The position numbers were made by a program, and so were the translations under genes. From Patescibacteria group bacterium (lineage in GTDB: Bacteria > Patescibacteriota > Minisyncoccia > Portnoybacterales > UBA2143): a stretch of 64,000 nt of DNA. Positions 1,465 to 53,821 of this stretch are shown in pieces; within the stretch, counting starts at the first letter, position 1, and each line of letters opens with the position of its first letter. The stretch spans positions 2,512-66,511 of the forward strand of contig JAHJSM010000003.1 of the NCBI GenBank assembly GCA_018830295.1, in the 5' to 3' direction. The notes beneath the pieces were generated by a model. The model saw only the letters and a program-made list of their open reading frames with translations. It did no database searches and was not told where the DNA came from.

Positions 1465-1468
1465 ATTT

Positions 1469-26336: not shown

Positions 26337-27196
26337 TACACCCTTCCCTCTATCCTTAAATCCACATACTCTAAAGCGGCCAATCCCTCTTCCGTTTCGT
26401 TTTTTAAAATAACCTTGAGCGCGTCGATTTGCGAAATAGCCGGAACAGACGGATTAAAATAAATCTGCCAGCCCTGAATAGTCGTTGCTTTCAATTCTTC
26501 ATCCGAAACAAATTCAAAATCGCGCGCGTCGGGAAAGACCTTTTTGGCGGTTAAAATAAAATCAATCACCCTTGGCGGAATAACTTCGTCTCTGATTTTC
26601 GCCGAATTATTTTCGCCATAAATATTAAGAACTAAATTGCCTCCGATAAGAGGCGACTCCCGAAAAATCACGCCCTCCCGATCAATCTTAAAACAATCCC
26701 CAATCTCCCCAGGGGACAGTCCCCCGTCCGCGGGGGCTGACCCCGTTGTAGCTAAATTGTCCTCATCACTAAGGGACAGTCCCTCGTCGCGAGGGACTGT
26801 CCCTGTCTTAGTTATCACACACCAAATCCCGACACTCTCCCTCTCCCCTATTTTAATCTCCAAAACAGAAGGCATTTTTTTCAAAACATTGACCAGCCGA
26901 ATTTCAGGAAACCTTTCCAGAATCCTTTTTTCAATTTCCTCCGTCGGCGCCAAAAAAACGCTTTTTAGCGGAATAAAATAAAAAATCTTTTCTTCTAAAA
27001 CCCTTTTCGCGATTTCTTCTATCTCTGCGGATGAATAATACATCGGCTCCTTGCCATCCGCCGCCTCAACTTTAATTTCACCCACCCAAAAAAAAGGCGA
27101 CCAGACCAAAAAATAAGCCAAGCCGCCTATCAAACAAAAAAACAGTCCCAAAAAAACAAACTTTTTAAGGGACTTTTTTTTCTTTCTTTTAATCAT
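26327..27196 (-). CDS. FtsQ/DivIB-like cell-division protein (POTRA) with hairpin-element insertions
   Basis: An N-terminal TM is followed by a POTRA-like region (IRLVNVLKKMPSVLEIKIGERE). Two hairpin units sit in frame (GTVPRDEGLS...GSAPADGGLSPGE). Confidence 0.55.
   Translation of the reverse strand: MIKRKKKKSLKKFVFLGLFFCLIGGLAYFLVWSPFFWVGEIKVEAADGKEPMYYSSAEIEEIAKRVLEEKIFYFIPLKSVFLAPTEEIEKRILERFPEIRLVNVLKKMPSVLEIKIGERESVGIWCVITKTGTVPRDEGLSLSDEDNLATTGSAPADGGLSPGEIGDCFKIDREGVIFRESPLIGGNLVLNIYGENNSAKIRDEVIPPRVIDFILTAKKVFPDARDFEFVSDEELKATTIQGWQIYFNPSVPAISQIDALKVILKNETEEGLAALEYVDLRIEGRVYYK
26712..26803. repeat. two GC hairpin units inside ftsQ-like CDS
   Basis: ggggacagtcccccgtccgcgggggctgacccc ... 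agggacagtccctcgtcgcgagggactgtccct. Confidence 0.85.
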
Positions 27197-28600: not shown

Positions 28601-29878
28601 TTATTCCTTTGGGCGCATTAGGGGGAATAGAATTGCTTCTCTTAAGCTTTTCGCATCTGTCAATAAGAGCACCAGTCGGTCTATGCCCAGACCAAAACCA
28701 GCGGCGGGGGGCATTCCATATTCAAGCGCTTCAATAAAATCTTTATCGTATCTTTGCGCTTCCTCATCTCCTTTTTCGCGTTTTTTCTCTTGTTCCTCAA
28801 ACGCTTTTTTCTGCTCAATCGGATTATTCTGCTCGGTAAACGCTTTTATTAATTCTACTCCACAGGCAATACCCTGAAGCGCCTGTCCGTCTTTGCAAAG
28901 CGGCATATTCGGCACATTCAAAACAAAAGTTGGCTTTTCAAGTTTAGCGTAAGCCGCCTTATCGTCGCCATTTTTAACAATTTCTCCGTATTCCACTCTG
29001 TCCCATTTTTTTGGAAAAACCTTCGGATCAAGATGATACATTAAATCCTCCGTAAATTTCATCAAGTCCTCCCAATCCCAATAAGCCGCGTACCATTCCA
29101 ACATTGTAAAATCAGGATTATGCTCCCTGTCCATGCCCTCATTTCTAAAACATCTGCCAATTTCAAAGACCCTCTCAAACCCGCCCACCAAAAGCCGCTT
29201 CAAATACAATTCTGGCGCGATTCTTAAATACAAATCTATGTCCAACGCGTTAAGATGTGTCGTAAAAGGTTTCGCGTTAGCGCCCCCGTATAGCGACTGC
29301 AAAATGGGGGTCTCCACCTCCATAAAATTATTCTTTTCCAAAAACTCTCTTATTTTTTTAATAATTTCATTCCGTTTGACAAAGACCTCGCGAACATCCT
29401 TATTCATGATCAAATCCAAATATCTTTTGCGAAATCTTTCTTCAACATCCTTAATCCCGTGCCACTTTTCGGGCAAAGGCGACAAACTTTTGCTCAAAAT
29501 TTTGTAATCGTTCAGCAAAAGCGTTTTTTCTTCCTTCTTTGTTAAAAAGAGCGTCCCGCGCGCGCCGATAAAATCTCCCACATCAAAATGAGCAATAAAA
29601 AAATTATATTTCTCCTCGCCAATTCCGTCCTTTTTTAAATAAATCTGAATCTGCCCCGAGCCGTCTTCAATATTAGCGAATGTAGAACCGCCATGTTGGC
29701 GAATTGAACGCAAGCGACCGACCAAAGAGACCTCCTCGCCCCCAGCGGAAAGTTCATCAAAACCATCAAACGCCTCCTGGCAAGTATGCGTCCGCTCCGT
29801 TTCGCTCGGATACGGATTTATTTTGGCTTTGCGAATACTCTCTAATTTCTCCAGCCGATTTTGTTTTATTTCATTCAT
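28601..29878 (-). CDS. lysS: lysyl-tRNA synthetase (class II)
   Basis: An OB anticodon-binding domain is followed by LRIAPELYLKRLLVGGFERVFEIGRCFRNEG and GLGIDRL. Confidence 0.85.
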   Translation of the reverse strand: MNEIKQNRLEKLESIRKAKINPYPSETERTHTCQEAFDGFDELSAGGEEVSLVGRLRSIRQHGGSTFANIEDGSGQIQIYLKKDGIGEEKYNFFIAHFDVGDFIGARGTLFLTKKEEKTLLLNDYKILSKSLSPLPEKWHGIKDVEERFRKRYLDLIMNKDVREVFVKRNEIIKKIREFLEKNNFMEVETPILQSLYGGANAKPFTTHLNALDIDLYLRIAPELYLKRLLVGGFERVFEIGRCFRNEGMDREHNPDFTMLEWYAAYWDWEDLMKFTEDLMYHLDPKVFPKKWDRVEYGEIVKNGDDKAAYAKLEKPTFVLNVPNMPLCKDGQALQGIACGVELIKAFTEQNNPIEQKKAFEEQEKKREKGDEEAQRYDKDFIEALEYGMPPAAGFGLGIDRLVLLLTDAKSLREAILFPLMRPKE

Positions 29879-29891
29879 AAGCGCAATTTAT

Positions 29892-29922
29892 GGGGGCAGC
29901 CCCCGCAACGGGGGCTGCCCCC
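29892..29922. repeat. GC hairpin element between greA stop and lysS start
   Basis: gggggcagcccccgcaacgggggctgccccc. Confidence 0.85.
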
Positions 29923-29930
29923 ATCTTATC

Positions 29931-30404
29931 TTACTCTATCCCCACAATCTTATACCCCACCTTCCCCTTCGGCGTTTCTACTTCTATTGTATCACCAATT
30001 TGACGACCTAAAAAGGCCTGACCTAAAGGCGATTCGTTTGAAATTTTGCCCTGAACCGGGTCGGCTTCTCGCGAACCAACAATCGCAAAAATCCTTTCTT
30101 CAGCCGTAGAATTGGTCATAAGCGCCTTAACAACCGAGCCCACTTGGACTTTCTTCCCCTCTGATGGCTGCCCTTTGGACGGCTCAATTAAAACCGCGTT
30201 TTTGAGCGCCTCTTCCAATTCAGCGATCTTACCCTCGTTAAACGATTGAGCGTTTTTAGCGGCATCGTATTCGCTATTCTCGGACAAGTCGCCCATTGAC
30301 CTCGCCTCCTCCAACCGTTCAGCAATTTCTCGCCGTCCGTCCGTTTTGCGCTCCTCTAACTCCTTCTTCAATTGTACCAACCCCTCTTTGCTAATATGTT
30401 CCAT
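29931..30404 (-). CDS. greA: transcription elongation factor GreA
   Basis: LEEARSMGDLSENSEYDAAKN plus a C-terminal FKBP-like domain. The start is taken at MEHISKEGL. Confidence 0.85.
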   Translation of the reverse strand: MEHISKEGLVQLKKELEERKTDGRREIAERLEEARSMGDLSENSEYDAAKNAQSFNEGKIAELEEALKNAVLIEPSKGQPSEGKKVQVGSVVKALMTNSTAEERIFAIVGSREADPVQGKISNESPLGQAFLGRQIGDTIEVETPKGKVGYKIVGIE

Positions 30405-32277
30405 ACCTATTAAAATACCATTCCAAGACCTCTTTGGCAACTGGGACAGCCGCCTTGTGCCCCTCTCCTCCGCCCTCAATCACAATTGCTATGACGATTT
30501 GCGGATTATCATAAGGCGCGTAGCCGACAAACCAACTATGCGTTTTCCCTTCTGTCCCAAATTGAGCCGTTCCGGTTTTGCCCGCCACCTCAACGGGCAA
30601 ACTCCCTAAAGCGGCGGCCGAGCCGGTAATTACCGCCTGGCGCATTCCTTTTTGAACCGTCGCGATATTCTCCGATTGGATAAAATTGTCTTTAACAATA
30701 ACAGCATCAACAGATTTATCAACCAATCGCGGCTGATAAAAAATACCCCCGTTGGCAATAGCGGAAATAGCCGCCGCCATTTGCAAAGGCGTTACTAAAA
30801 GATCCCCCTGTCCAATTGACAAATGATATGTATCGCCTAAATACCACTTCTCGCCGCCTTGTCCAATTTTCCACTCTTCGTCTGGAATTAAACCCGCTTC
30901 TTCATAAGGCAAGTCAATTCCCGTCTTCTGTCCCAATCCAAAATTTTGAAGATATTCTTTGATTCGGTCAACGCCCAGTCCTGCTGTTTGCTCGTACCCG
31001 CCGCCAACAATATAGAAAAAAACATTACAGGACTCCGCGATCGCCTTAACAATATCCGTCAATCCATGAACCGTCCAATCGGGATAGCGATAAACAATTT
31101 CTGGGTTATAAATATTGGCGATGCTCAAAAGGCCAGTACAATTGATTTGGCGAGAAGAAGAAATCACTTTTTCTTCCAGCGCGGCGGCCGCGATTAATGG
31201 CTTAAGCGTTGAGCCGGGAGGATACTGCCCCGCGACCGCCCGATTTAAAAATGGCTGGTCATATTTTCCAAAGAGCGCGTCCAACTCCAATTGGGAAATT
31301 CCTTGAACAAGAAGATTACTGTCAAAACCAGGCAAACTGACCATCGCCAAAACCCCGCCGTTGTTCGGGTCAATCGCAACCGCCGCCGCCGCATTGTCCG
31401 CCATCCCCTCCAAAGAAGAATAAAGTTTCTTTTGCAATTCACCATCAATAAAAAGAACCAACCCCTCCCCCGGTTCAGGCAATTTAGAAGCCAATAAATT
31501 TCTTATCCGCCCCAGCGCGTCAACCTCCATTTGCTCCTGCCCCGGCTCGCCTCTCAAAATTTCCTCATATTGCCGTTCCAGCCCGTCCTTTCCAATTTGG
31601 TCGTTGAGCAAATAATTATCTCTATCTTTTAATTCTGACGGGCTAATCTGCCCTGTATAGCCGAGAATATGAGCGAAATATGCCCCAAAAGGATACTGCC
31701 GCTGGGCGTTTTTCTCCAATCGCATCCCCGGCCAATTATCAACCCAATTTTCCAAAACCAAAGCCGCCTCTCTTTCAATATTTTTAAGCAGAACTATTTG
31801 GCTCGTCTTTCCCGATGCCTCTTCTATTTTTTCTCTTAACGCGTCTTTACTCTCAACTGAAACGACTTTAATAATTTTTTCCAAAATCTTTTCCTGAACC
31901 AAAATAGAATTTTCCAAAAAATCAACTAAATTAACAACTAAATCAAAACTTGGGATATTATAAACCAACGGCTGATGAAAACGGTCGTAAATTATTCCGC
32001 GCGGAGCGCTCACCGAATAAATTCTCAATTTATTTCCCCGCGACAACTCCGAATAATATTCCCCTTTAATCACCTGAAGATAGCCCGCCCTAAAAAAAAG
32101 CCCCAATAAAACGACAGCCATGAGCGCGTATAAAAAAACAAAATTACGATTTTTAATCGGTTGCTCTAGTTTTCCTTTTCTTTCCAAAGAACGAACCGCT
32201 TCAGCGTCCAAAAAAATCTCCTCCGCTTCAACGCTCTCTTTAGACCTGTATTTTACGAAATATTTTTTTAATCCCAT
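30391..32277 (-). CDS. mrdA: penicillin-binding protein 2 (elongasome transpeptidase)
   Basis: An N-terminal TM is followed by SxxK (GSTLKP), SxN (ESCNVFF) and KTG (AGKTGTAQ). It follows mreC and mreD. Confidence 0.85.
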   Translation of the reverse strand: MGLKKYFVKYRSKESVEAEEIFLDAEAVRSLERKGKLEQPIKNRNFVFLYALMAVVLLGLFFRAGYLQVIKGEYYSELSRGNKLRIYSVSAPRGIIYDRFHQPLVYNIPSFDLVVNLVDFLENSILVQEKILEKIIKVVSVESKDALREKIEEASGKTSQIVLLKNIEREAALVLENWVDNWPGMRLEKNAQRQYPFGAYFAHILGYTGQISPSELKDRDNYLLNDQIGKDGLERQYEEILRGEPGQEQMEVDALGRIRNLLASKLPEPGEGLVLFIDGELQKKLYSSLEGMADNAAAAVAIDPNNGGVLAMVSLPGFDSNLLVQGISQLELDALFGKYDQPFLNRAVAGQYPPGSTLKPLIAAAALEEKVISSSRQINCTGLLSIANIYNPEIVYRYPDWTVHGLTDIVKAIAESCNVFFYIVGGGYEQTAGLGVDRIKEYLQNFGLGQKTGIDLPYEEAGLIPDEEWKIGQGGEKWYLGDTYHLSIGQGDLLVTPLQMAAAISAIANGGIFYQPRLVDKSVDAVIVKDNFIQSENIATVQKGMRQAVITGSAAALGSLPVEVAGKTGTAQFGTEGKTHSWFVGYAPYDNPQIVIAIVIEGGGEGHKAAVPVAKEVLEWYFNRYGTY

Positions 32278-32719
32278 TAAAAATAAGAAGCGCGATAAGT
32301 AGATTATACAAAGCGCTCCAAAATAAATATCCAACGCTAAAAATTGGTTCTAATTTAAATAAAACTAATAGAAGATTCAAAAACAAATTAAAAACAGAAA
32401 CGCCCAAAACGACCAGCCCTATTTTTACGGCAAATTTAAATTTCAAGGAAATCATATTATTAAGCCAATCAACACCGTAAGCCGCTCCAATCAAACTCAA
32501 GTTCGCTAACCCAAAAGGCAAAACCGAAAATAAGTCCAAAAAAACGCCCGCCAATAAGACATCTAACCAGACCCCCTTAAAACCGTCTAAAATAACAAAA
32601 ATCAAAGCCAAAATCAAAACCAAATTCGGCGCGACTTCCCCCACAGACAAAAAAGGAACAACCGTCGTCTGCAAAACAGCCGCCAACAACAAAGTAAAGA
32701 TAATAAATAAATGCCTCAT
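32240..32719 (-). CDS. mreD: rod shape-determining protein MreD
   Basis: A 159-aa polytopic membrane protein positioned between mreC and pbp2. Confidence 0.65.
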   Translation of the reverse strand: MRHLFIIFTLLLAAVLQTTVVPFLSVGEVAPNLVLILALIFVILDGFKGVWLDVLLAGVFLDLFSVLPFGLANLSLIGAAYGVDWLNNMISLKFKFAVKIGLVVLGVSVFNLFLNLLLVLFKLEPIFSVGYLFWSALYNLLIALLIFNGIKKIFRKIQV

Positions 32720-32741
32720 CTAATGCTCCATGGGGGCTGCC

Positions 32742-32772
32742 CCCGCAACGGGGGCAGCCCCCATCTTACTTA
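32742..32772. repeat. GC hairpin element between mreC stop and mreD start
   Basis: gggggctgcccccgcaacgggggcagccccc. Confidence 0.85.
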
Positions 32773-33530
32773 ATTACAAACACCCTCTCCAACTTCATAA
32801 AATCAACCACTGGTTTAATTTTCGCCGTTTGCGAAATTCGCGCGTCGGAAGAAATTACTTTTTGAATCTGACCAATCAGCAAGCCCGGCGGAAAGAACCC
32901 TGCTAAACCCGATGAAATCACCGTTTCGCCGCTGTTAATCTCCTCTCCTTGGGGCAACAAATCAATCACTAAATCCAACCCCTGCGCGCTTTTAACCAGA
33001 CCTGTAATCCCGGATTCTTGTATTAAAGCATTGACTTTACTATTGGGATCCGAAAGTAAACGAACTTTTGCGAATGAGCCAAGCGCTTCAATAACCTGCC
33101 CAACCAAAAGATTGCCAGCCGAAATAACAACCATCCCTTCTTCAACGCCATCTTCTTTGCCTTTATTAATTAAAAATTGCCTATTAGAGCCCAAAATATC
33201 ATACCCAATCACTTCCGCCAAAATCAATTCTCTCTCTTCATTCGCGGACAATCCTATTTGTTCCCGAAGAAAATTATTTTCCTGCTCCACCCTTTTTAGA
33301 AAAGCAACCTCGCCCAAAAGTTGAGCGTTCTCTTCTCTAAGATTGTTATTCTCCTCGCCGGTAATTCCGTTAATTTTTTGGGCAATTTGATATATTATTT
33401 TTTGAAACGAACCGGTCAATTGAAAAAAAACATTTTTAGGCGACTCCAACCACCCCTGCCCATTCATAAAAATAGCGACGGCGATGATTAGCAAAGACAA
33501 AATAAAAGGATGGCGAAAAAATTTCTTCAT
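32766..33530 (-). CDS. mreC: rod shape-determining protein MreC
   Basis: A TM is followed by coiled-coil (NNNLREENAQLLGEVAFLKRVEQENNFLREQ) and beta domains. Confidence 0.8.
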   Translation of the reverse strand: MKKFFRHPFILSLLIIAVAIFMNGQGWLESPKNVFFQLTGSFQKIIYQIAQKINGITGEENNNLREENAQLLGEVAFLKRVEQENNFLREQIGLSANEERELILAEVIGYDILGSNRQFLINKGKEDGVEEGMVVISAGNLLVGQVIEALGSFAKVRLLSDPNSKVNALIQESGITGLVKSAQGLDLVIDLLPQGEEINSGETVISSGLAGFFPPGLLIGQIQKVISSDARISQTAKIKPVVDFMKLERVFVIK

Positions 33531-33567
33531 TACGCCCCATATTACCACAACCCCAGTCACAACAAAA

Positions 33568-33644
33568 GGGGGCTGCCCCCGCAACGGGAGCAGCCCCCAT
33601 CTTAATCCCAAGGGGACTGTCCTTCGCCGCGAGGGACAGTCCCC
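33568..33644. repeat. two GC hairpin units, intergenic (one of each type)
   Basis: gggggctgcccccgcaacgggagcagccccc ... ggggactgtccttcgccgcgagggacagtcccc. Confidence 0.85.
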
Positions 33645-33651
33645 GTCTTAA

Positions 33652-33885
33652 TTACATTGACATCGGTCTTTCTTCATCTTCACTTTCCGCTGGCGTTTCC
33701 GCTGGCGCTTCCGGAGCGTCCTCAACCATTGGAGCAACTACATCAGCCGAATCATCGGATACTTCCGGCGCGGCATCAACCGCTTCAGGCGCTGAAGCTC
33801 CTTCATCCTCTTTATCTTTTTTCGCGCCCATCCAAATTGCCAAACCGCCCGCCGCGACTAAAAGAATTATAATCCATGTCCACAT
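33652..33885 (-). CDS. small membrane protein with acidic tail
   Basis: A single TM (MWTWIIILLVAAGGLAIWMGA) is followed by a D/E/A/P-rich tail. Confidence 0.35.
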   Translation of the reverse strand: MWTWIIILLVAAGGLAIWMGAKKDKEDEGASAPEAVDAAPEVSDDSADVVAPMVEDAPEAPAETPAESEDEERPMSM

Positions 33886-34040
33886 ATTTTTACTTCGCTT
33901 AAAATTTGTCTTCCTAAACACTGATGTTAAAAAAACAAACCCCAAACAAAATTACCTTTCTTTATTTAATTTATATTCACAATCCACTTTTATTATAACA
34001 AAAACAAATCAAAATAACAAAAAAATTTCGTTGTGGATAA

Positions 34041-34730
34041 CTATCTTCCCCTAATCACCATCCACGGAAACATCACAACAGCGTTAAAAATCCGCTTTAC
34101 CCGCCGCGGCTGAACGCCGAAACGCCAAGCCCATTCCAATCCAGTCGCTCGCAAAAATTTAGGCGCGCGCCTTATATCCCCTGAAATAAAATCAAACGCG
34201 CCTCCCACTCCCACCGCCAATTTAACCGAAGGCAGTTTTCTTAAATTCTCCGCGATCCATTTTTCCTGTTTCGGCATCCCTAAAGCAACGAAAAGAATTG
34301 ACGGTTTTTCTATTTGATATTCGCTAATTTTTTCTATATCTATTTCTCTAATCTCTAAGCCGTCATATTTTTCCCTCAAATTGTCCGCCGCTTTTCGCGC
34401 CACTCCCGCGCCGCCGCCTACTAAAAAAATTTGACATTCCTCTCGCGCGAATTTCTGGCAAATTTTTTCCATCAAATCAACGCCTGCGAATCGCTTCTTT
34501 AACGGCTCGCCTAAAAACCAAGAAGCAAAGACCAAACCAACCCCATCAGGAACCGCTAAATCAGCCCCGTTAAGAATTCCCCTAAATTCCTCATCTTTCC
34601 GCGCCCAAACCAAAAATTCTGGATTAAGCGTGACGATATAATGTTTCTTTTCGCTTCGCAAAAATCCGTCTATCCTTTCAAAAATTTCCTCTTCTCCTAA
34701 ATTATCCACTCTAACCCCTAAAATCTCCAT
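34041..34730 (-). CDS. WecB/TagA/CpsF-family glycosyltransferase (GT26)
   Basis: MEILGVRVDN...YIVTLNPEF...ADLAVPDGVGLV, typical of TagA/WecG. Confidence 0.8.
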   Translation of the reverse strand: MEILGVRVDNLGEEEIFERIDGFLRSEKKHYIVTLNPEFLVWARKDEEFRGILNGADLAVPDGVGLVFASWFLGEPLKKRFAGVDLMEKICQKFAREECQIFLVGGGAGVARKAADNLREKYDGLEIREIDIEKISEYQIEKPSILFVALGMPKQEKWIAENLRKLPSVKLAVGVGGAFDFISGDIRRAPKFLRATGLEWAWRFGVQPRRVKRIFNAVVMFPWMVIRGR

Positions 34731-34759
34731 AATTTTATTATAGCATAAAAGCATCATCC

Positions 34760-34892
34760 GGGGACAGTCCCCGCCGCGAGGACTGTCCCCTTCTTAACAA
34801 AGGGACATTCCAAGGGGGGCAGTCCCCCGTCTCGGGGGCTGCCCCCGTCTTAATCTCAAGGGGACTGTCCCTCGCGGCGAGGGACAGTCCCC
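34760..34892. repeat. cluster of three GC hairpin units in divergent promoter region
   Basis: ggggacagtccccgccgcgaggactgtcccc / ggggggcagtcccccgtctcgggggctgccccc / ggggactgtccctcgcggcgagggacagtcccc. Confidence 0.85.
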
Positions 34893-34939
34893 GTCTTTCT
34901 ATTGCTCTCTGCCTCAAAAAGGATATAATAATAATAAAA

Positions 34940-35362
34940 ATGATTAAAAAAGAAACGGCCATCCAGCAAATCGTCAATCACTATTTCGCAACTAAGGGCT
35001 TAAACACCGACGAGCTTAAAAAAGACGCCAAAAAAGGAAAAATTATTTATTCCAGGCATACCCGCCCCGCGAAACAACTCTTAGAACTCGCTGGTTCCGT
35101 CACAAAAGCCAAAAAAGCCATCAATAAGGTCTCAAAGTGGGCGCGCTCAAGAAACCTTGATTACGCCATTGAGACCGTTTTTAAAAAATGGCTTGAATTA
35201 GATCGCCTCAAACCAAAAGAGATCGTCAAAAAACCTTTTTTTAGAGATGAACCGATGATTTGGTCAAAGACAAAAAAGAAATGGTTTGTTATTACCAAAG
35301 ACGGCGAATGGAAAGAATTCGCCGCTAAAGAATCCGAGATTGAATGGAAATTAGAAAAATGA
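34940..35362 (+). CDS. hypothetical basic protein
   Basis: A 140-aa K-rich protein with no recognisable domain. Confidence 0.4.
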   Translation: MIKKETAIQQIVNHYFATKGLNTDELKKDAKKGKIIYSRHTRPAKQLLELAGSVTKAKKAINKVSKWARSRNLDYAIETVFKKWLELDRLKPKEIVKKPFFRDEPMIWSKTKKKWFVITKDGEWKEFAAKESEIEWKLEK

Positions 35363-36654
35363 TTCTCAACATCCAAACAGGCGCCGACAATCCCGTTTTG
35401 CGCCGAAAAGCCAAAGAAGTTAAAAAAATCAACTCTCAAATCAGAGAGCTTATTTTAAATATGAAGGAAACGCTTGAAAGCGACGGCAATTCCATCGGTT
35501 TAGCCGCTCCACAAGTGGGCAAATCACTGCGCATCATCGCAATCAGCCCCGAACTAAATGAAAAATCTATCATTTTGATCAATCCAAAAATCGTTAAAAC
35601 ATCGTTTAGAAAAATAGTTTTAGAAGAGGGCTGTTTAAGTTTACCTAATATTTCCATCCCCATTAAAAGACATTCCAAAATAACGGTCCAAGCACTCAAC
35701 GAAAAAGGCGAGCCAATCAAGATAAAAACCGAAGGCCTCGCCGCCCGAATTATCCAACACGAAATCGACCATTTAGAGGGTATTTTAATTATTGACTCCC
35801 TCTTGGGGACAGTCCCTCGCCACGAGGGACTGTCCCCGGATTATCTTAAAACAATTTTTATCGGGACTTCTGAATTTGCCGTTCCTGTTTTGGAGGCGCT
35901 TGTTCGCTGTTCATTGTTCGCCGTTCAATGCGTTATTACCGCTCCCGATAAACCCGCTCCCTCGCCGATTAAAATAGCCACTTTGCAAAACGGGTTGCCT
36001 ATCTTACAACCCGAAAAAATATCAAAAGCCGCGGTGAAAATATCCAATTTAAAGCCCGACTTAATCATCACCGCCTCTTATGGACAAATCATTCCAAAAA
36101 ATATTTTAGACATTCCAAAATACGGCTCCATTAACATCCACCCTTCGCTTTTGCCAAAATATCGCGGACCGTCCCCCATCCAAACGGCCATTTTGAACGG
36201 CGACAAAAATACTGGCATTTCCGTGATGCTTATGGACGAAAAAATGGACCACGGGCCGATTATCGCCCAAAAAAAAGTCGCTATAAAAAAGCGCGAAAAC
36301 TATCAGGACTTGGAAAAAAGATTATCTCTCCTCTCGGCAAATTTTTTGTTAAAGATTCTGCCACGATATATCCAAGGAAAAATTAATCCGAAAAAACAAA
36401 ACAATTCTAAAGCCAGTTATACTAAAATACTTTCCCGCCAAGACGGACAAATTAAACCAAAACAAACCGCCCAAGAAATTGAAAGAATGCTCTGCGCTTT
36501 TACGCCTTGGCCCGGCGTCTGGACTATTATTAAAAAACGCCGAGTAAAAATCCTCAAAGCGAAGGTCGTCCAAGGGCGACTTCTCTTAGAAATTGTCCAG
36601 CCCGAAGGCAAAAAACCAATGACCGCGGAGGAATTTTTTCGTGGATTAAGGTAA
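35344..36654 (+). CDS. def-fmt: peptide deformylase - methionyl-tRNA formyltransferase fusion
   Basis: Def motifs GLAAPQVG, EGCLSLP and HEIDHLEG are present. A hairpin-derived linker SLLGTVPRHEGLSPDYLK follows. The Fmt N-terminus IFIGTSEFAVPVLEAL lacks its own Met and continues to an Fmt C-terminal domain. Confidence 0.8.
   Translation: MEIRKMILNIQTGADNPVLRRKAKEVKKINSQIRELILNMKETLESDGNSIGLAAPQVGKSLRIIAISPELNEKSIILINPKIVKTSFRKIVLEEGCLSLPNISIPIKRHSKITVQALNEKGEPIKIKTEGLAARIIQHEIDHLEGILIIDSLLGTVPRHEGLSPDYLKTIFIGTSEFAVPVLEALVRCSLFAVQCVITAPDKPAPSPIKIATLQNGLPILQPEKISKAAVKISNLKPDLIITASYGQIIPKNILDIPKYGSINIHPSLLPKYRGPSPIQTAILNGDKNTGISVMLMDEKMDHGPIIAQKKVAIKKRENYQDLEKRLSLLSANFLLKILPRYIQGKINPKKQNNSKASYTKILSRQDGQIKPKQTAQEIERMLCAFTPWPGVWTIIKKRRVKILKAKVVQGRLLLEIVQPEGKKPMTAEEFFRGLR
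35805..35837. repeat. GC hairpin element exactly at def/fmt junction (in frame)
   Basis: ggggacagtccctcgccacgagggactgtcccc. Confidence 0.85.
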
Positions 36655-36663
36655 CCCGCGGAT

Positions 36664-36694
36664 GGGGGCTGCCCCCGCAGCGGGGGCAGCCCCC
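36664..36694. repeat. GC hairpin element downstream of def-fmt, upstream of rpsF
   Basis: gggggctgcccccgcagcgggggcagccccc. Confidence 0.85.
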
Positions 36695-36741
36695 AAATTT
36701 ACTTCTTGACCTTATTCTTGTTTTTTGGTACCCTATAACCG

Positions 36742-37269
36742 ATGAATGAACAAAACAAAATATATCAATTAACTTGTCTTTTTTCTCCACTCTTAAGTTC
36801 TGAAGAATCCGACAAATTAGTTCAAAAAATTAAAAAAGAAATTACCGACCGCGAGGGTTCTTTTGATTTGCCGTCCGCATTTTTAGTAAAAGAGAATCTA
36901 ACTAAAAAGAGATTATCTTACCCAATTAAAAAAGAACAGGAAGCGCTTTTTATAAACATAAACTTCACCGCCCCTGCTGAAGCGATTGGCCAAATTGTAA
37001 ATCAAATCGGGTCAGAGAAAGATGTCCTTCGCTGTCTGGCTACTCTGGAGAAAAAAAGCAAACCCAAACCACAGCCAGACAAAAACGAATTTGATTTTGA
37101 ATTCGTTGATAAAGTAGAACCGCTTGTTAAAAAAGAAATTGAGCCAGAAAAACAAATAGAAAAAAAAGAAGAAGAAACAACCGAAGAAGAAATCCCAGAC
37201 AAATCCTCAAAAGCAAAAGTCAAAATTGAAGAATTAGACAAAAAGTTAGAAGAAATATTAAATCAATAA
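36742..37269 (+). CDS. rpsF: ribosomal protein bS6 with acidic C-terminal extension
   Basis: LSYPIKKEQEALFININF matches the bS6 core. It precedes ssb-rpsR in the classic operon order. Confidence 0.7.
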   Translation: MNEQNKIYQLTCLFSPLLSSEESDKLVQKIKKEITDREGSFDLPSAFLVKENLTKKRLSYPIKKEQEALFININFTAPAEAIGQIVNQIGSEKDVLRCLATLEKKSKPKPQPDKNEFDFEFVDKVEPLVKKEIEPEKQIEKKEEETTEEEIPDKSSKAKVKIEELDKKLEEILNQ

Positions 37270-37270
37270 T

Positions 37271-37753
37271 ATGAATTTAAATAAAGTTATTATTGTCGGG
37301 CGGTTGACGCGCGACCCAGAATCAAGAGCAATGCCTTCGGGAAAAAGCGTTGTTTCTTTGGGTATCGCGACCAACAGTTTTTGGACAGACGCGAGTGGAA
37401 ATAAAAAGGAAGCGACAGAATACCATAATATCGTTGTCTTTGGAAAATTAGCCGATACTTGTTCCCAATACCTTACAAAAGGACAGTTAATTTTGGTGGA
37501 GGGACGAATTCAAACCCGTTCTTGGGACGACCAAAGCGGAAATAAAAAATATAAAACAGAAATAATTGCCAACAACATGCAAATGGGACCAAGGCCGGGA
37601 GGAAGCCAAGCGGCGCCAAACACTACAACAAACCAGCCAAACCGACCCGCCCCCGCTCCCGCGCCTGTTTCCCAAGAAGATATTCCCGTGATTAACGCCG
37701 AAGAACCAATGGAAGTGAAAAACGAAGTTGATGTAGAAAGCATCCCCTTTTAA
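37271..37753 (+). CDS. ssb: single-stranded DNA-binding protein
   Basis: OB fold (VIIVGRLTRDPE...YHNIVVFGKLA...LVEGRIQTRSW) with a C-terminal DIPF tail. Confidence 0.9.
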   Translation: MNLNKVIIVGRLTRDPESRAMPSGKSVVSLGIATNSFWTDASGNKKEATEYHNIVVFGKLADTCSQYLTKGQLILVEGRIQTRSWDDQSGNKKYKTEIIANNMQMGPRPGGSQAAPNTTTNQPNRPAPAPAPVSQEDIPVINAEEPMEVKNEVDVESIPF

Positions 37754-37768
37754 TTTTATTAAACACTT

Positions 37769-37972
37769 ATGATTAAAAATTGCCCATTTTGCCAGGAAAA
37801 AGATTTAGAGATTAATTACCAAGACACCGAAACACTTTTTCGGTTTACTTCAGGACAAGCCAAAATAATCACCCCAAAACGAACCGGCGTCTGCGCTAAA
37901 CACCAAAGACAGCTCGCCAAAGCGATAAAAAGAGCCCGCGTCATGGGGCTCATGCCATTTATAAGGAAATAA
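37769..37972 (+). CDS. rpsR: ribosomal protein bS18
   Basis: CPFC...INYQDTETLFRFTS...KHQRQLAKAIKRAR. Confidence 0.85.
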   Translation: MIKNCPFCQEKDLEINYQDTETLFRFTSGQAKIITPKRTGVCAKHQRQLAKAIKRARVMGLMPFIRK

Positions 37973-37989
37973 AGAAATAAGCGTTTTAT

Positions 37990-38142
37990 ATTTTTTTGAT
38001 ACGCGTGGGGCGCCCTTTAGGGCTAAAGCGTTCAGAAAAATCTAAACGCGAACTTTCCGAGCAAGCATTCTGAAATTTCTGATGCGTGTAGGGTTCCCGT
38101 TCCGACGGGATAAAACGCTCAGAAATTTCAGAATGCGAGCGA
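37990..38142. repeat. family B intergenic repeat, copy 3, plus a diverged tandem unit
   Basis: Unit 1 is nearly identical to copies 1 and 2. Unit 2 (about 38058-38142) keeps the same architecture with different arms (cattctgaaatttctgatgcgtg...cgctcagaaatttcagaatgcgag). It lies between the convergent ends of rpsR and recA. Confidence 0.7.
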
Positions 38143-38144
38143 TC

Positions 38145-39155
38145 TTAACTCGCGTTTTTCATTATCTCTTTCACAATCTCCGCCACAAGGCGGGGATTTT
38201 CTTTTAGGTATTTTTTTGACGCTTCTACGCCCTGCCCCAATTTCGTTTCTCCGTAAGAAAACCAAGCGCCTGCTCTTTTAATCACGCCGAACTTAACGCC
38301 CGTATTAACAATGTCCCCGAGACGGGAAATTCCTTCATTGTAAAAAATATCAAACTCCGCCTGCCTAAAAGGAGGAGCAACTTTGTTTTTAACTACTTTA
38401 ACTTTCGTCCTATTGCCGATAATTTGCTCGCCCTGCTGAATTTTCGCCGAGCGACGAAGTTCTAAGCGAACCGAGGAATAAAACTTCAATGCCTTTCCGC
38501 CGGGCGTTTCTTCGGGGTTTCCGAAAACAATCCCTATTTTCATTCTAATTTGATTAATAAAAATAACAGTCGTTCCGCTTTTATGAACAATAGCGGTCAA
38601 TTTTCTTAACGCCTGCGACATAAGCCGCGCCTGTAAACCCATGTGCGACTGCCCCATTTCACCTTCAATTTCAGCTCTGGGCGTCAAAGCGGCAACCGAG
38701 TCAATTACAACTAAATCAACCGCCCCCGACCTGACTAAACTCTCCAAAATCTCCAATGCTTGCTCGCCTGTATCTGGCTGGGAAATAAACAAATCATTAA
38801 CTTTTACGCCAATTTTTTTGGCGTATTCCGGATCCAGAGCGTGTTCCGCGTCTATAAAGGCCGCCAAACCGCCTTTTTTTTGCGCCTCGGCAACAATATG
38901 AAGCGCCAGGGTGCTTTTGCCGCTTGACTCCATCCCAAAAATTTCAATAATTCTCCCGCGCGGCATTCCGCCAACCCCCAAAGCCAAATCCAGAGCGATT
39001 GAGCCCGTCGGGATAGCGTCAACATCAACATGCTTCGCGTCGCCCAATTTCATAATCGCGCCATCGCCAAAACGCCCCCTGATTTCATCAACCGTCGCGT
39101 CCAATATCTTTATTTTCTCCTCCCTCACCTCCACCGCTGTTTTTTGTTTAGACAT
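38145..39155 (-). CDS. recA: recombinase RecA
   Basis: [19 protein letters not shown], the L1 and L2 loops, 336 aa. Confidence 0.95.
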
Positions 39156-39259
39156 AAAAATTTTTAATTTCCAATTTTTAAAACTCTCAAATTTTTCTTA
39201 ATCTTGTTCTTGTTTTTCTTATTTTTCTTATTTGGAAATTGATAATTGAGAATTGAAAA

Positions 39260-41401
39260 TTATATCTCTTCTTCTCCCTTATCCTCAAAAACATCTCTCG
39301 CCTTCGCTCCATCGGATGGGCCGACTACGCCTCTATCTTCTAAAATATCAATCAGACGAGCGGCGCGGGCGTATCCAACCCTTAAACGCCTTTGGAGTAA
39401 GGACGCAGACGCTTTTCCGGCGCGGATAACTTCCGCTTTCGCTTCTTCGTAAAGCTCGTCGTCCGCTTCCGAACCGTCGGCGCTAAACGAAGTTCTTCTT
39501 GACTCTGTTCCGGAAGAATCCAACTCATCCTTATACTCCGGCTCGCAACCCTTTCTTAAATAATCCGTCACTTTTTTAATCTCTTTTTCTGAAACATATC
39601 CGCCCTGAACCCGAATCGGCTTAGCAGAATTTCCTGCCAAGAAAAGCATATCGCCGTTGCCTAATAATTTTTCTGCCCCGCCCATATCCAAAATCGTCCG
39701 CGAATCAATCTGTGAAGCAACTTGAAAAGCCATTCTTGAAGTAATATTCGCTTTAATTAAACCCGTAATTACTTCAACCGAAGGCCTTTGGGTCGCGACA
39801 ATCAGGTGAATCCCGACCGCGCGCGCCATTTGAGCGATTCTCACAATCGCTCCTTCTGCCTCGCGTCCATAAGACGACATTAGGTCCGCCAACTCGTCAA
39901 TCACAATCACGATATATGGTAACCGCTCTCCGTCTATATCCTTATTATAACTTCCAATATCCCGTTTCCCTGCCCCTTGAAGAACGCCAAACCGTCTTTC
40001 CATTTCCCCAACCGCCCACCGTAAAGCGCCGACTGCCTTGTCTGGCTTAACAATTACCGGCGTTAATAAATGAGGAATGTTGCTATACGCCGTTAACTCA
40101 ACCCTTTTCGGGTCAATTAAAATAAGTTTCAAATTTTCAGGCAAAGCGCGATAAAGTAAACTCAAAATAACATTATTCAAAGCAATCGTTTTGCCCGTTC
40201 CTGTCGCGCCGGAAACCAAGAGATGAGGCATTTGCGACAAATCAGCAAAGACCGGCTTGCCCGCCACATCGCGTCCTAAAGCGAGAACCAATCCCGCAGT
40301 GGATTCTTGAAAAGCGGGCCTCTCCAAAAGCGTTCTTAATCGCACCAAAACCATTGATTTATTGGGAATTTCTATCCCAACCAAAGACCTTTTGGGAATG
40401 GGCGCCTCTATTCTTAAGGGATGCGCCGCCAAAGCCAAAGCCAAATCATTTTGCAAAGAAGTAATTTTAGCAAGTTTAACTCCTTGGGCTGGCCTCAAAG
40501 TATATTGTGTCACCGTCGGTCCAACATTTACTTCCGCCATTTCCACTTCAATCCCAAAATTCTCCAGCGTTCTTTTTATAATATTAATATTCGCTTTAAT
40601 ATCGCCGCTCGTCGGCTGGCCGACATCTTTTTCCAAAAACTCAAGAGGAGGCAATTGAAAACCGCTAAATTGCTTGTTCAAACCGTCCGAAATTGAAACC
40701 ATAGGAATAACAGTCGCTTTTGCTTTCGCCTTTACATCGGGAGCCGCCTCTTTTCCTACAATATGGTCACCTCCAATTTCTGGCTTATTGTCTGGCAAAT
40801 CAGATTTTCTTTTAAGCCGTTGCCAAACGCTGTTTTTTACCTCAACAGCTAAAGATTCCTCTTTCTCGTCCTCCGAAGATTTGGCGGAGGAGGATTTAAC
40901 CGCCCGCGCCGGTATTAGAGAAATATTAAAAGTAATTAAAATAGAAATCGCCAAAACAGCGAACAGGACAACCAGTCCCGCCCAAAATCCCAGAAATTTA
41001 GAAGAGGGATAACCCAAAACCAATCCCAAATATCCGCCTTCAGCGGTCAAAATATGAAAAAGACCTAAAACACTGAAAATAAAAAGGGCCATTCCCGATA
41101 GAATCGTCCGATAAACAGGGTTGCTTCGCCCGCCAAAACCAAAACCAGGAAGCAAAACCGCCAGCCCAGCGAGAACAAAACTAATAGAAACCAAGAAAAA
41201 TCCCTTGCCAAAAAGCATTACGCTCAATTTGAAAAAATATTCGCCAAATGTCCCGGCCACGCCCAAAAAACTTAACAAACTAACAGCGGCAAAAGTGAAA
41301 AAAATAATCACCAAAACCCCCTTCTTGGTTTCAGGGTGGAGGAAAGAAATCTTCTTTTTAACGCCACCCTTTTTAAGTTTTTTTTTGGTCTTTTTGGGCA
41401 T
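39260..41401 (-). CDS. ftsK: DNA translocase FtsK
   Basis: N-terminal TMs are followed by the FtsK/SpoIIIE motor (VSGATGTGKT) and a C-terminal gamma domain (LLQRRLRVGYARAARLID). Confidence 0.9.
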   Translation of the reverse strand: MPKKTKKKLKKGGVKKKISFLHPETKKGVLVIIFFTFAAVSLLSFLGVAGTFGEYFFKLSVMLFGKGFFLVSISFVLAGLAVLLPGFGFGGRSNPVYRTILSGMALFIFSVLGLFHILTAEGGYLGLVLGYPSSKFLGFWAGLVVLFAVLAISILITFNISLIPARAVKSSSAKSSEDEKEESLAVEVKNSVWQRLKRKSDLPDNKPEIGGDHIVGKEAAPDVKAKAKATVIPMVSISDGLNKQFSGFQLPPLEFLEKDVGQPTSGDIKANINIIKRTLENFGIEVEMAEVNVGPTVTQYTLRPAQGVKLAKITSLQNDLALALAAHPLRIEAPIPKRSLVGIEIPNKSMVLVRLRTLLERPAFQESTAGLVLALGRDVAGKPVFADLSQMPHLLVSGATGTGKTIALNNVILSLLYRALPENLKLILIDPKRVELTAYSNIPHLLTPVIVKPDKAVGALRWAVGEMERRFGVLQGAGKRDIGSYNKDIDGERLPYIVIVIDELADLMSSYGREAEGAIVRIAQMARAVGIHLIVATQRPSVEVITGLIKANITSRMAFQVASQIDSRTILDMGGAEKLLGNGDMLFLAGNSAKPIRVQGGYVSEKEIKKVTDYLRKGCEPEYKDELDSSGTESRRTSFSADGSEADDELYEEAKAEVIRAGKASASLLQRRLRVGYARAARLIDILEDRGVVGPSDGAKARDVFEDKGEEEI

Positions 41402-41417
41402 AATTCTAAGATTCTAA

Positions 41418-41448
41418 GGGGGCTGCCCCCGCAACGGGGGCAGCCCCC
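41418..41448. repeat. GC hairpin element between rpoC stop and ftsK start
   Basis: gggggctgcccccgcaacgggggcagccccc. Confidence 0.85.
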
Positions 41449-41459
41449 GTCTTTCTTTG

Positions 41460-44400
41460 CTATTTCCCGTATCCTGTTCCTGCTGGTATTAGTTTACCAA
41501 TAATTACATTTTCCTTCAACCCCTTTAATTTATCCTCTTTTCCTTGGATGCTGGCGTTAATCAAAACCTGCGTCGTTTGAATAAACGAAGCTGCCGAAAG
41601 AAAACTTTCCGTCGTCAAAGAAACCTTGGTAATACCAAGCAAAATCTGCTCGCCAGACGCAAGTTCTCCGCCTTTTGCCGCGGCCTCATTATTCTCCGCC
41701 GTAAAACGACTTTGTTCAACAATCTCATCCCCTAAAAGAGTCGTTGAGCCGGGGTTTTTGACTTTGACGCGAGAAAACATCTGGCGAATAATCATCTCTA
41801 TGTGCTTATCGTTGATATTTGCTCCGACAAACGCGTAAATTTGTTGAACCTCTTTCAGAATATATCTCTGAACCGCTTCCCTTCCCGCCACTTTATACAA
41901 ATCAGCCAAGTCAACATGCCCCTCTCCTAATTGCTGTCCTTTTCCAACCAAGTCGCCTTTTTCAATTTGCATCGCGATATGCGACGGAAGAGTATATTCC
42001 AAAACCGCTTTTTTATTCTTGTCTTTCTTTTGTTTCCCGTCATCCAAAACCTCTATCTGAACAATTCTCTGTGTTCCATTTTCAATAATATTTTTCACCT
42101 TGCCGTCCACTTCTGAAATGACGGTCTTGCCTTTGGGAACGCGCGCTTCAAAAATTTCCTCAATCCGAGGAAGACCCTGCGTAATATCCTGCCCGCCCGC
42201 GACACCGCCCGTGTGGAAGGTCCGCAAAGTCAACTGGGTCGCCGGCTCGCCAATCGCCTGCGCCGTCACAATTCCAACCGCCTCGCCTAATTCAATTAAC
42301 GCGTTTCTACCCAAATCATATCCATAACAACTTTGACAAACTCCATCCAACGACTTGCAAGCGATGACAGACCTAACTCTGACGCTTTTAACGCCCGCTT
42401 CATCTATAATCTGAGCGGCTTTTTGACTAATGATCTCGCCTGCTTTCGCCAACAATTTTTTCTTGCCGCCTTTGCCCGCCTCCGCGTAAATATTATCTAA
42501 CGCGATTCTCCCGACAATCCGATAAGCGAACGAAACTCCCAAATCTTCTTCGTCCTCGCGATAAATTTTAATCCCGGTCGTATCTCCGCAATCCTTTTCG
42601 CGAATGACCACATCCTGACAGACATCAACCAAGCGACGCGTCAAATACCCTGCTTGCGCCGTGTTCAGAGCCGTGTCAGCCAATCCCTTTCTGCCTCCAT
42701 GAGTGGAAATGAAATATTCCAAAACGCTCAAGCCCTCTTTATACGAATTTTTAATCGGCAGTTCAATAATTTCATTAGACGGGTTGACAACCAACCCTTT
42801 CATTCCCATCATTTGAGATAACTGTTTTAAAGACCCGCGCGCGCCCGAATCAAAAATACTGAAAACTGGGCCGTTTGGGTCAAGGACCTCCATTGTTTTT
42901 TTGGATATTTTATCGCTCACGCCCAGCCAAATCTCAATTACGCGCGCTCTTCTTTCGTCATCCGTCAACAACCCGTCGTCATATTGCCCCTGAACTTTAA
43001 CCGACTCGCGCGAGGCCTTTTCTAATTCTTCTTTTTTCTCTTTAGGAACTTGTAAATCATCCATGCCCCAACTAATGCCAGAAACCGAAGCGTATTTAAA
43101 GCCCATTCTCTTAAGTTTGTCTAAGATAACCGCTGTTTTTTTAATACCAAATTTATCAACTATTTCCGAGACCAATTTGCGGATTTCTTTTTTATTCATC
43201 GTCTTGTTGACAAACTCCATTCCTTCTGGCAAGGGCTCGTTAAAAATTACTCGCCCAATAGATGTTTCCACTAATTCTCCGTTCTCTAAGCGAACTTTGA
43301 CCCTCGCTTTCAAATGGACATCGCCAAAATGCTTCGCTAAAAGCGCCTCCGAAATGCCCGAAAAAATCTTCCCTTCGCCAACTAGCCCCTCCTCAATTTT
43401 TGTCATCCAGTAGCAACCCAAAACCATATCCAAAGAAGGCACCGCGACCGGTTCGCCCGTAGATGGCTTTAAAATATTGACCGAAGAAAGCATAATCTCC
43501 TTCGCCTCTTTTTGCGCCGCCTTGCCTAAAGGTAAATGAACTGCCATTTGGTCGCCGTCAAAGTCGGCGTTAAAAGCGCTACAAACAAGAGGATGAACCT
43601 GAATTGCTTTTCCTTCAATTAAAATCGGCTGGAAGGCCTGTATTCCCAAACGATGCAAAGTCGGCGCTCTGTTCAAAAGCACATATCTATTCTTGGTCAC
43701 TTCTTCTAAAATATCCCAAACCTCGTCAATTTCTTCCTCAATCAGCCGTCCTGCGCCTCTCACATTATGCGCCAACTCTCTCTCAACTAATTTGTTAATT
43801 ACAAACGGCTTGAAAAGTTCCAAGGCCATATATTTAGGCAATCCGCACTGGTTCAATTTTAAATCAGGACCAACAACAATAACTGAACGGCCTGAATAGT
43901 CAACTCTTTTTCCTAAAAGGTTTTGTCTAAATCTGCCCTGTTTGCCTTTAAGCATATCCGCCAACGATTTCAAAACGCGTTTTTGCCCGGTAGACGCGGC
44001 AACCGTCACTTGTCCGCGACGGCTCGTGTTGTCAATCAAAGCGTCAACCGCTTCCTGCAACATTCTTTTCTCGTTGCGGCAAATAACCTCCGGCGCTTTC
44101 AACTCCAAAAGCCGCTTTAAGCGGTTATTTCTATTAATCACTCGGCGATACAAATCATTGACATCAGAAGTCGCGTAACGGCTTCCATCCAATTGAACCA
44201 TCGGACGCAAATCAGGCGGCAAGACCGGCAAGACCGTCCAGAACATCCATTCCGGGCGAATTTTAGCGCGAATCATTCCCTCAATCAGTCGCAACCGCTT
44301 GAGCATTTTTGCCTTAATCGCCACGCTCGCCGTTTTCGCCTGGTCATCCAGTTTTTTAGCAAGCGCTTCTAAATTAATTCCCTCAAAAATTGTCCTTAAT

Positions 44401-51551: not shown

Positions 51552-51774
51552 GGGGACAGTCCCCTCTTGGGGACTGTCCCCGGATTCTCTTTTTTTATTA
51601 TACCAAAAAATTGAAAAAATAAAAGCCCGAATTATCCCCATCAGGTTTTTCCGATGGGAGCAGCCCCCGCCGCGAGGGCTGCCCCCTTTCCCTTTCTCGG
51701 GGGCAGCCCCCCGTCCTCGGGGGCTGCCCCCATTTCGCCACGAGGGGACAGTCCCCTCTGGGGGACTGTCCCCG
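51552..51774. repeat. large intergenic array of >=5 GC hairpin units
   Basis: ggggacagtcccctcttggggactgtcccc ... gggagcagcccccgccgcgagggctgccccc ... gggggcagccccccgtcctcgggggctgccccc ... ggggacagtcccctctgggggactgtcccc. Confidence 0.85.
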
Positions 51775-53765: not shown

Positions 53766-53821
53766 CCCGCAACGGGGGCAGCCCCCATCCCCTCTCTTGG
53801 GGACTGTCCCCGTCTTAGCTA
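53766..53821. repeat. two GC hairpin units between dprA stop and comM start
   Basis: gggggctgcccccgcaacgggggcagccccc ... ggggactgtcccc. Confidence 0.85.

Follow-up and report, generated by a model that had tools for sequence, protein, structure and literature searches.

The locus described here raises the question of whether a repeated DNA hairpin can join two separate genes into one. It lies in a window of 64,000 nucleotides (nt) from a Patescibacteria group bacterium (GenBank assembly GCA_018830295.1, contig JAHJSM010000003.1, positions 2,512 to 66,511 of the forward strand). One open reading frame (ORF) of this window encodes both peptide deformylase (Def) and Met-tRNA formyltransferase (Fmt), and a palindrome occupies the linker between the two parts. 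An earlier note on this DNA proposed that the palindrome had replaced the stop codon, spacer and start codon between def and fmt and had thereby fused the genes. Our results suggest a different order of events, in which def and fmt were very probably fused first and the hairpin, a copy of a repeat, entered the existing linker afterwards without breaking the frame.

The fusion ORF extends from 35344 to 36654 on the forward strand and encodes 436 amino acids (aa). It is documented by the ORF list, three Pfam domains, an AlphaFold2 model and related assemblies, and a second ATG at 35359 may be the true start. No stop codon interrupts the ORF, and Def and Fmt share one frame, as the earlier note had stated. 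The deformylase domain (aa 14-153; 35383-35802, forward strand) matches Pfam PF01327 (Pep_deformylase) with an E-value of 2e-45, and solved deformylases in the Protein Data Bank (PDB) align to aa 7-153. Catalytic motifs I, II and III, defined as GxGxAAxQ, EGCLS and HExDH (quoted in PMC12690207), are intact as SIGLAAPQVG, EEGCLSLP and HEIDH. The translation and the Pfam match thus uphold the claim of a complete Def, which had been recognised by GLAAPQVG, EGCLSLP and HEIDHLEG. This part terminates 9 residues beyond HEIDH, where standalone orthologues also stop (after IIDYA or IIDK). The Fmt part (aa 171-436; 35854-36651, forward strand) consists of an N-terminal catalytic domain (PF00551, Formyl_trans_N, aa 171-336, E-value 6e-36) and a shortened C-terminal domain (PF02911, Formyl_trans_C, from aa 363, E-value 6e-16), and the PDB Fmt chains 4iqf and 1fmt/2fmt align to aa 167-410. 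Its catalytic motifs, NIHPSLLPKYRG and MDHGPI, are intact, and the invariant columns, including H266 and S268-P271, are kept. The AlphaFold2 model, built on a 66-sequence alignment, is confident in both halves, with a mean predicted local distance difference test score (pLDDT) of 91 and a predicted template modelling score of 0.82. The best protein match has 98% identity and is annotated as Candidatus Portnoybacteria. Most likely, the gene yields one bifunctional Def-Fmt polypeptide, which would have both activities.

The hairpin in the linker is a 33-nt perfect palindrome (35805-35837) of the GGGGACWGTCCC sub-family, delimited by a stem scan, by folding and by comparison of related loci. It has a 15-bp stem and a CCA loop and reads GGGGACAGTCCCTCG-CCA-CGAGGGACTGTCCCC. 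As RNA it folds with an energy of -33.3 kcal/mol (z = -7.3 relative to shuffled sequences). Sequences with at most three mismatches to it occur at five places in the window (eight strand matches) and in none of 100 shuffles; the earlier note was right to regard it as a copy of a repeated element and to place it at the domain junction. The note's 18-aa linker was mistaken, since 33 nt encode 11 residues, here G155-P165 (GTVPRHEGLSP), in frame. To the right lies a flank, GGATTATCTT (35838-35847, forward strand), which encodes (P)DYL and replaces the ancestral fmt codons AAA AAG AYA; to the left lies CTCTT. The right-flank sequence CCCCGGATTMTCTT is found elsewhere only beside the hairpin at 51552-51581, and this flank appears to have come in together with the palindrome. 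Relative to the hairpin-free allele described below, 13 residues (TVPRHEGLSPDYL) substitute for 3 (KKI), and excision of the 33 nt from the window would likewise keep the frame open. The insert is free of stop codons, changes the length by a multiple of three and encodes a Pro/Gly-rich peptide, and the only stretch of the model with a pLDDT below 50, residues 156-164, is the hairpin-encoded peptide. For these reasons, the insert is predicted to be a tolerated, disordered extension of the linker between two well-folded domains.

A comparison of related def-fmt loci with and without the element, proposed in the earlier note as a check, reveals three junction states that can be read directly from the assemblies (L001, GCA_018900215.1; L002, from ENA; L012, from JGI; L004, GCA_022013995.1; L006, GCA_034660935.1). 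Three independent assemblies, L001, L002 and L012, have the same fused ORF without the hairpin (426 aa), in DNA blocks that are 95-99%, mostly 97-99%, identical to the window. Their junction reads GAC TCC CTC TTG GGG AAA AAG ATA AAA ATA ATT TTT. The window and L004 have the fused junction with the hairpin, GAC TCC CTC TTG GGG-ACAGTCCC...GTCCCC-GGATTATCTT-AAA ACA ATT TTT. The fused ORF therefore occurs in four further assemblies; that of L004 has the full length, and those of L001, L002 and L012 are shorter by 10 codons. The genes are separate in L003, with ATT ATT GAC TAC GCA TAA A ATG AAA AAA ACA AAA ACA ATT TTT at the junction. They are also separate in L005, L006 and L008/L009, where Def ends in IIDK or IIDYA, the spacer is ~36-75 nt and the standalone Fmt begins M-K/E/A-K-T-K. 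As the earlier note anticipated for relatives, the closest non-fused genomes have a stop codon, spacer and start codon at exactly this place; the Fmt of the nearest genomes with separate def and fmt is 75-80% identical to that of the window. An assembly artefact was rejected as an explanation, as each junction state is present in at least two independent assemblies and L004 has a junction identical to that of the window.

Judged by its codons, the fused state without the hairpin came first. The outgroups L003, L005, L006 and L008 open fmt with ATG AAA AAR ACA AAA AYA (M-K-K-T-K). L001 retains GGG AAA AAG ATA AAA ATA in register with these outgroup codons, whereas the window has GAT TAT CTT there. 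The polarity follows because the L001 codons match ancestral fmt and a deletion from the window state cannot recreate them. Substitutions that the sequences share within the gene group them as ((window, L004), (L001, L002)). A hairpin later than the fusion would not have created it, and an appealing causal story is thereby corrected: the hairpin is not what fused def and fmt. Aligned with L001, the window has 38 nt in place of 8 nt and is thereby longer by 30 nt (10 codons). Clean insertion, target-site duplication, direct-repeat deletion and inversion were each considered as ways of deriving the window junction from that of L001, and none fits this exchange.

How, then, did the fusion arise? 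All fused genomes have a 12-nt joint, TCCCTCTTGGGG (35797-35808, forward strand), in place of the 13 nt, TACGCATAAAATG, that hold the stop, spacer and start of unfused relatives, as seen in the junctions of the window, L001, L002, L004 and L003. The 1-nt difference puts fmt in the frame of def, and the swap removes the stop codon and the ATG. Exact matches to the 12-mer CCCTCTTGGGGA occur only at the joint and inside the hairpin at 51552-51581. All three of its matches with one mismatch lie in or directly beside repeat copies, with 0.35 matches expected by chance. By these matches, the joint is repeat-family sequence. One part of the earlier proposal is therefore retained in altered form. The 33-nt hairpin did not replace the stop, spacer and start, given that L001, L002 and L012 are fused without it, and the sequence that did replace them appears to derive from the same repeat family. 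The family also targets tight gene junctions; at 32730 a hairpin separates the mreC stop from the start of the following gene, two codons that overlap in L001 as TAATG. Because of the match at the joint and this preference, an earlier event involving the repeats plausibly fused the genes, and its remnant may then have attracted a second copy. The role of the family as the cause of the 13- to 12-nt exchange, like the mode by which its copies move, is something that we infer.

The proposed course of events would start from separate def and fmt genes that abut at TAA-A-ATG, the arrangement seen in the nearest other genomes. Replacement of the 13 nt of stop, spacer and start by the 12 nt of TCCCTCTTGGGG would then have given a fusion with a 5-residue linker, the state of L001, L002 and L012. 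On the branch to the window and L004, the full palindrome and its flank (38 nt) would have replaced 8 nt, lengthening the linker by 10 residues. A bolder version is that the palindromic repeat family itself made the fusion, by a copy that hit TAA-A-ATG and left the 12 nt as an in-frame footprint, and that a second copy re-entered the same spot; we hold this to be a possibility, and a somewhat doubtful one. If it were true, three successive states (separate, footprint-fused and fused with a full hairpin) would survive in living genomes. The repeat family would still be active, and in a reduced genome of the candidate phyla radiation (CPR) selfish DNA resembling repetitive extragenic palindromic (REP) sequences would give rise to multidomain proteins and provide essential genes with new linkers. 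In a neighbor-joining tree of the Fmt part, the clade of the window is nested among ~85 standalone Fmt proteins. Other fused proteins, ~36 among the 120 best database matches and all from other Patescibacteria, form separate, deep, all-fused clades with linker classes of their own. On this tree the fusion in the window clade is young and of independent origin.

It is unlikely that a hairpin struck the unfused stop of def and start of fmt, fused the genes in one step and was later lost from the L001-type allele. This account would explain why the joint common to all fused genomes is repeat-family sequence, why both flanks of the window copy match the hairpin at 51552-51581 and why the family sits at tight junctions such as that at 32730. 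It would also fit other solo-flank remnants in L001, for example CCCCTGTCTTA at the site of the window hairpin at 29890. However, L001, L002 and L012 hold AAA AAG ATA in register with the ancestral AAA AAR ACA, and the window lacks these codons. Deletion cannot regenerate them, the window has no sequence from which to copy them, and two complex events would be needed as opposed to one per branch if the hairpin came after the fusion. A second alternative is that the fused ORF is not what the cell produces, either because Fmt is translated separately from an internal TTG at 35803 (or CTG at 35830) or because the mRNA is cut or terminated at a regulatory hairpin. The earlier note had allowed for a missed internal start of fmt, and an in-frame TTG does lie within the joint at 35803, one codon 5' of where the ancestral ATG stood. 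The family usually lies just past stop codons, where it may serve as a terminator or stabiliser, and a simple scan rates 35803-39 as terminator-like. We nevertheless regard this alternative as highly improbable. The TTG has no stop before it and, in the window, is hidden within the base of a stem of -33 kcal/mol. As def has no stop codon in any fused genome, ribosomes from def must enter fmt. Old, conserved clades of Def-Fmt fusions have no start codon at the junction, and a published fusion is active as one protein (PMC12690207). An intrinsic terminator was rejected because no real U-tract follows the stem; the tail is AUUAUCUUAA, and the site lies within an open frame. The leaders of 33 window genes are mostly A/T-rich and without a Shine-Dalgarno motif, a clear GGAGG-like site being present in three (GGACT, purB and purC-purE). 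Absence of the motif at the joint consequently means little, and a Shine-Dalgarno analysis is uninformative about an internal fmt start.

It is also possible that selection on formylation has relaxed in this reduced genome and that the fusion, two deletions in Fmt and the hairpin are all signs of it, in which case Fmt, or Def as well, would no longer function. Three lineage-specific lesions of Fmt favor gene decay: it has lost its own start, and it carries two deletions located by codon alignment with L003 and L005-L008. The first, of 21 nt (7 aa), falls in the Fmt-specific loop (35950-35961, forward strand; the point lies between 35955 and 35956). The loop reads PDKP/APSP in the fused clade as opposed to PDKPVGRKKEITPSP in homologues, so that VGRKKEI is missing; the same 7-residue gap appears against solved Fmt structures, and the deletion is common to the window and L001. 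The second, of 33 nt (11 aa), falls in the C-terminal domain (36568-36579, forward strand; between 36573 and 36574). The Fmt-specific loop is known from Escherichia coli Fmt to help in the recognition of initiator tRNA. The earlier note's description of a complete Fmt consequently stands for the domains and fails for these stretches of 7 and 11 residues, which the closest homologues possess. Crude counts of nonsynonymous to synonymous substitutions are also higher for Fmt (8:9) than for Def (1:3). However, 8:9 is still well below the neutral expectation of ~3:1, all indels are in frame, no stops occur in five assemblies, the catalytic motifs and invariant columns of Fmt are kept, and the AlphaFold2 model is confident across the whole Fmt part. 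Decay is, in our judgement, improbable, and we return to a repeat copy added to a gene already fused and presumably functional. Several observations nonetheless weigh against that reading. The step from the L001 state to that of the window is not a clean insertion and has no target-site duplication, and would have been a complex event. The fused clade is known from two lineages only, and the polarity rests on outgroup codons. With the losses from the loop and the C-terminal domain, full Fmt activity is not assured. The substitution counts suggest constraint in Def and Fmt, but the numbers are small and too few for proof. Finally, neither a REP-associated tyrosine transposase (RAYT) nor an IS200/IS605 transposase was found among the 31 window ORFs scanned with Pfam, ~14 further ORFs and the rest of the genome being unscanned. 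As a separate observation on this gene, ten window-specific substitutions, mostly synonymous, crowd the last 60 nt of fmt (36588-36649), where L004, L001 and L002 agree; the cluster looks like a short recombination tract.

The hairpin in def-fmt belongs to a numerous family. The window is AT-rich (43% GC), and a strict scan finds at least 28 GC-rich hairpins, all between 18.4 and 64 kb (18495-63951, ~46 kb) and none in the first 18 kb. Examples lie at 18497, 18983, 29890, 32730, 34760-34892, 41418, 51552-51773 and 53756. They form two related sub-families, GGGGACWGTCCC and GGGGGCWGCCCCC, of perfect or near-perfect palindromes in which each arm is itself an 11-mer palindrome. The stems are 13-17 bp and start with GGGG, the loops are 1-3 nt and the core is 31-33 nt, or ~50 nt with flanks. 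Twenty aligned copies have 96% of their cells paired, and at 8 of the 15 stem positions both partners change. No shuffled alignment and no slid structure approaches this pairing, and shuffled sequences yield no such hairpins. As pairing is kept across copies, the palindrome itself is what is conserved. Of the 28 strict copies, 17 are intergenic, 1 lies over a gene end and 10 are intragenic with an open frame. The usual setting is just past a stop codon, with the pattern TAA-N-TAAGAY-hairpin on the gene strand, and copies often form tandem arrays with spacers of the CCCTCTCTT type. A hairpin of the sister sub-family, GGGGGCWGCCCCC, occupies this usual position 8 nt past the fmt stop (36663-36695) and is conserved in L001, L002 and L004. 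From these comparisons, the def-fmt hairpin is best explained as a member of a family of perfect, GC-rich palindromes specific to this lineage, which appears REP-like in general and resembles Rickettsia palindromic elements (RPEs) in its coding-region habit.

Searches beyond the window gave a narrow picture. Rfam at its gathering threshold returned only two tRNAs in the window and no RNA family for the hairpins. An exact-hairpin scan of GTDB species genomes matched two contigs, one (L010) from a related Patescibacteria metagenome-assembled genome (MAG) and one (L011) described next, and gave no broad distribution and no further def-fmt states. The latter match, at 3918-3975 of an alphaproteobacterial (Sphingomicrobium) MAG contig with 69% GC, repeats the GGGACAGTCCC arms and has TCG...CGA as spacers. 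With 28 specified bases it is very unlikely to be due to chance, and it could stem from a common ancestry of the repeats, horizontal spread or mis-binning.

Closely related genomes differ in their load of these repeats. In 10 kb shared with L001 (window 28995-39661) there are nine hairpins in the window as opposed to two in L001. L004, compared over window positions 34031-42904, shares the def-fmt copy and lacks the three hairpins at 34760-34892 and one at 41418. Outgroup loci have none or one. Such differences among genomes that are 97-99% identical indicate recent gain or, less likely, loss, and they suggest a recent burst of the repeat in the genome of the window. A repeat load that varies at this level of identity also offers a handle on how the repeats move.

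Insertion within genes is not confined to def-fmt. Strict in-frame hairpins are present in an FtsQ-like gene (26713-26804), in a Wzy/TPR membrane protein (51060-51092) and in the linker of dprA (53978-54053), between the Pfam domains DNA_processg_A and DprA_WH. Less perfect in-frame copies lie in a length-variable loop of rpoB (47845-47876) and at other sites. A protein search with the RpoB segment gave only partial homologues, of at most 60% identity, and thus no empty-site comparison for the copy in this variable loop. Two hypothetical proteins contain strict intragenic copies, one of them, the hyp144 ORF, having the same hairpin in its L010 orthologue. Three further strict copies lie in a giant ORF with Hint domains, and the sites of in-frame hairpins also include 18886-18918, 20173-20203, 21175-21201, 56154-56184, 62288-62326 and 63921-63951. 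The in-frame copies encode Gly/Pro/Ala/Thr-rich peptides (e.g., GTVPRxEGLSP), typically at loops or interdomain linkers. The standalone Fmt of L006 (3700-3760 of that locus) has a 14-residue in-frame insert, EQLGGSPQLRGDSSQF, encoded by a degenerate hairpin of the GGGGGCAGCCCCC type, at a site that differs from that in the window. The dprA gene (53819-54689, reverse strand) is broken into two ORFs in different frames (54351-54689 and 53819-54343), which match DNA_processg_A positions 10-119 and 126-211, respectively; the split is either a frameshift or a sequencing error. The giant ORF (56016-63986, reverse strand; more than 2650 aa) has intein/Hint domains, reaches close to the end of the window and contains repeated segments near 62290 and 63920-63950 with near-identical hairpins and identical downstream flanks.

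Fusion of Def to Fmt is itself already known. In Exiguobacterium, a fused def-fmt gene was reported that was able to complement the loss of def-fmt in E. coli, and one polypeptide can thus carry both activities (PMC12690207, Mol Biol Evol 2025). Patescibacteria do not figure in that account of def-fmt fusion. Such fusions are common in Patescibacteria, where there are many older fusion clades. The Exiguobacterium and window fusions are alike in being one ORF with Def before Fmt. However, they belong to different phyla and have independent origins, and the one described here has a Def part that stops 9 residues past HEIDH, a linker originally of only 5 residues and a shortened tRNA loop in Fmt.

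The hairpins likewise resemble known repeats without matching any of them. RPEs (Ogata et al. 2000, 2002) are selfish palindromic repeats which, according to passages in PMC10969869 and PMC3733652, are ~100-150 bp, AT-rich, restricted to Rickettsia and located between genes as well as in frame within unrelated, often essential genes, where they contribute a short peptide at positions compatible with the protein fold. The family in the window is similar in placing an in-frame repeat in unrelated genes at fold-tolerated sites (def-fmt, the rpoB loop, the dprA linker and the Fmt of L006). It differs, in a comparison made by description, in its 31- to 33-nt GC-rich core, its two copies of a self-palindromic 11-mer and its occurrence in Patescibacteria. 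REPs and the GTAG- and CGTC-tagged repeats (Di Nocera et al. 2013) are high-copy GC-rich stem-loops of 20-40 bp, mostly 3' of ORFs and sometimes clustered, with described stems of 8-9 bp, A/T at the first positions and loops of 4-5 nt (PMC3733652). They are sometimes intragenic and in frame, in several phyla, and the CGTC class has no dedicated transposase (PMC3733652). The present family shares with these a short, GC-rich, multicopy palindrome whose stem is maintained and a mainly extragenic location near the 3' ends of ORFs, although the def-fmt copy is intragenic. Its stems are longer, at 13-17 bp, and whereas many copies carry CCCC-GTCTTAG, i.e., C-GTC, the def-fmt copy lacks such a tag and is flanked by CTCTT and GGATTATCTT. 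In a test for the pattern of a miniature inverted-repeat transposable element, the insertion at 33612 is flanked left and right by TCTTA; the def-fmt site lacks a target-site duplication and has lost 8 nt to the replacement. The window elements seem to work like RPEs and intragenic REPs, yet they depart from the described REP families in tag and stem length and from RPEs in size and sequence.

Mobile GC-rich hairpins within the coding sequence of an AT-richer genome also recall the byp elements, or GC-cluster hairpins, of yeast mitochondrial genes, which Lang et al. reportedly described in 2014 as being skipped by translational bypassing. Byps break the reading frame and need matching take-off and landing codons. 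Here, in contrast, all intragenic copies keep the frame open, the def-fmt copy adds 30 nt and there are no matching flanking codons. Byp-like bypassing was dropped from consideration because every intragenic copy keeps the frame open; ordinary translation suffices for def-fmt, as the insert preserves the frame.

We consider the locus modestly novel, in that three evolutionary states are preserved and the joint appears to be made of repeat sequence. It offers alleles of each state for experiment, with the genes separate in L003, fused in L001 and fused with a hairpin in the window, and the Def-Fmt fusion that they record is independent and apparently very recent. It also points to a recently expanded palindromic repeat family in a Patescibacteria genome that is tolerated in frame in essential genes (rpoB and def-fmt), as in Rickettsia. 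Hairpins of this kind also matter for annotation, as they make ORFs longer and can lead gene callers astray in CPR MAGs.

Two other loci of the window deserve mention. A single ORF at 8183-9496 (forward strand) encodes SAICAR synthetase (PurC) together with AIR carboxylase (PurE), a fusion of enzymes of one pathway with no hairpin near it. The stretch from 1 to 18 kb, which is free of hairpins, may have a different history from the remainder. At 475-3258, genes for a C-5 cytosine DNA methyltransferase and a large serine recombinase adjoin tRNA-Asn (3177-3250), and this segment may be an integrated element.

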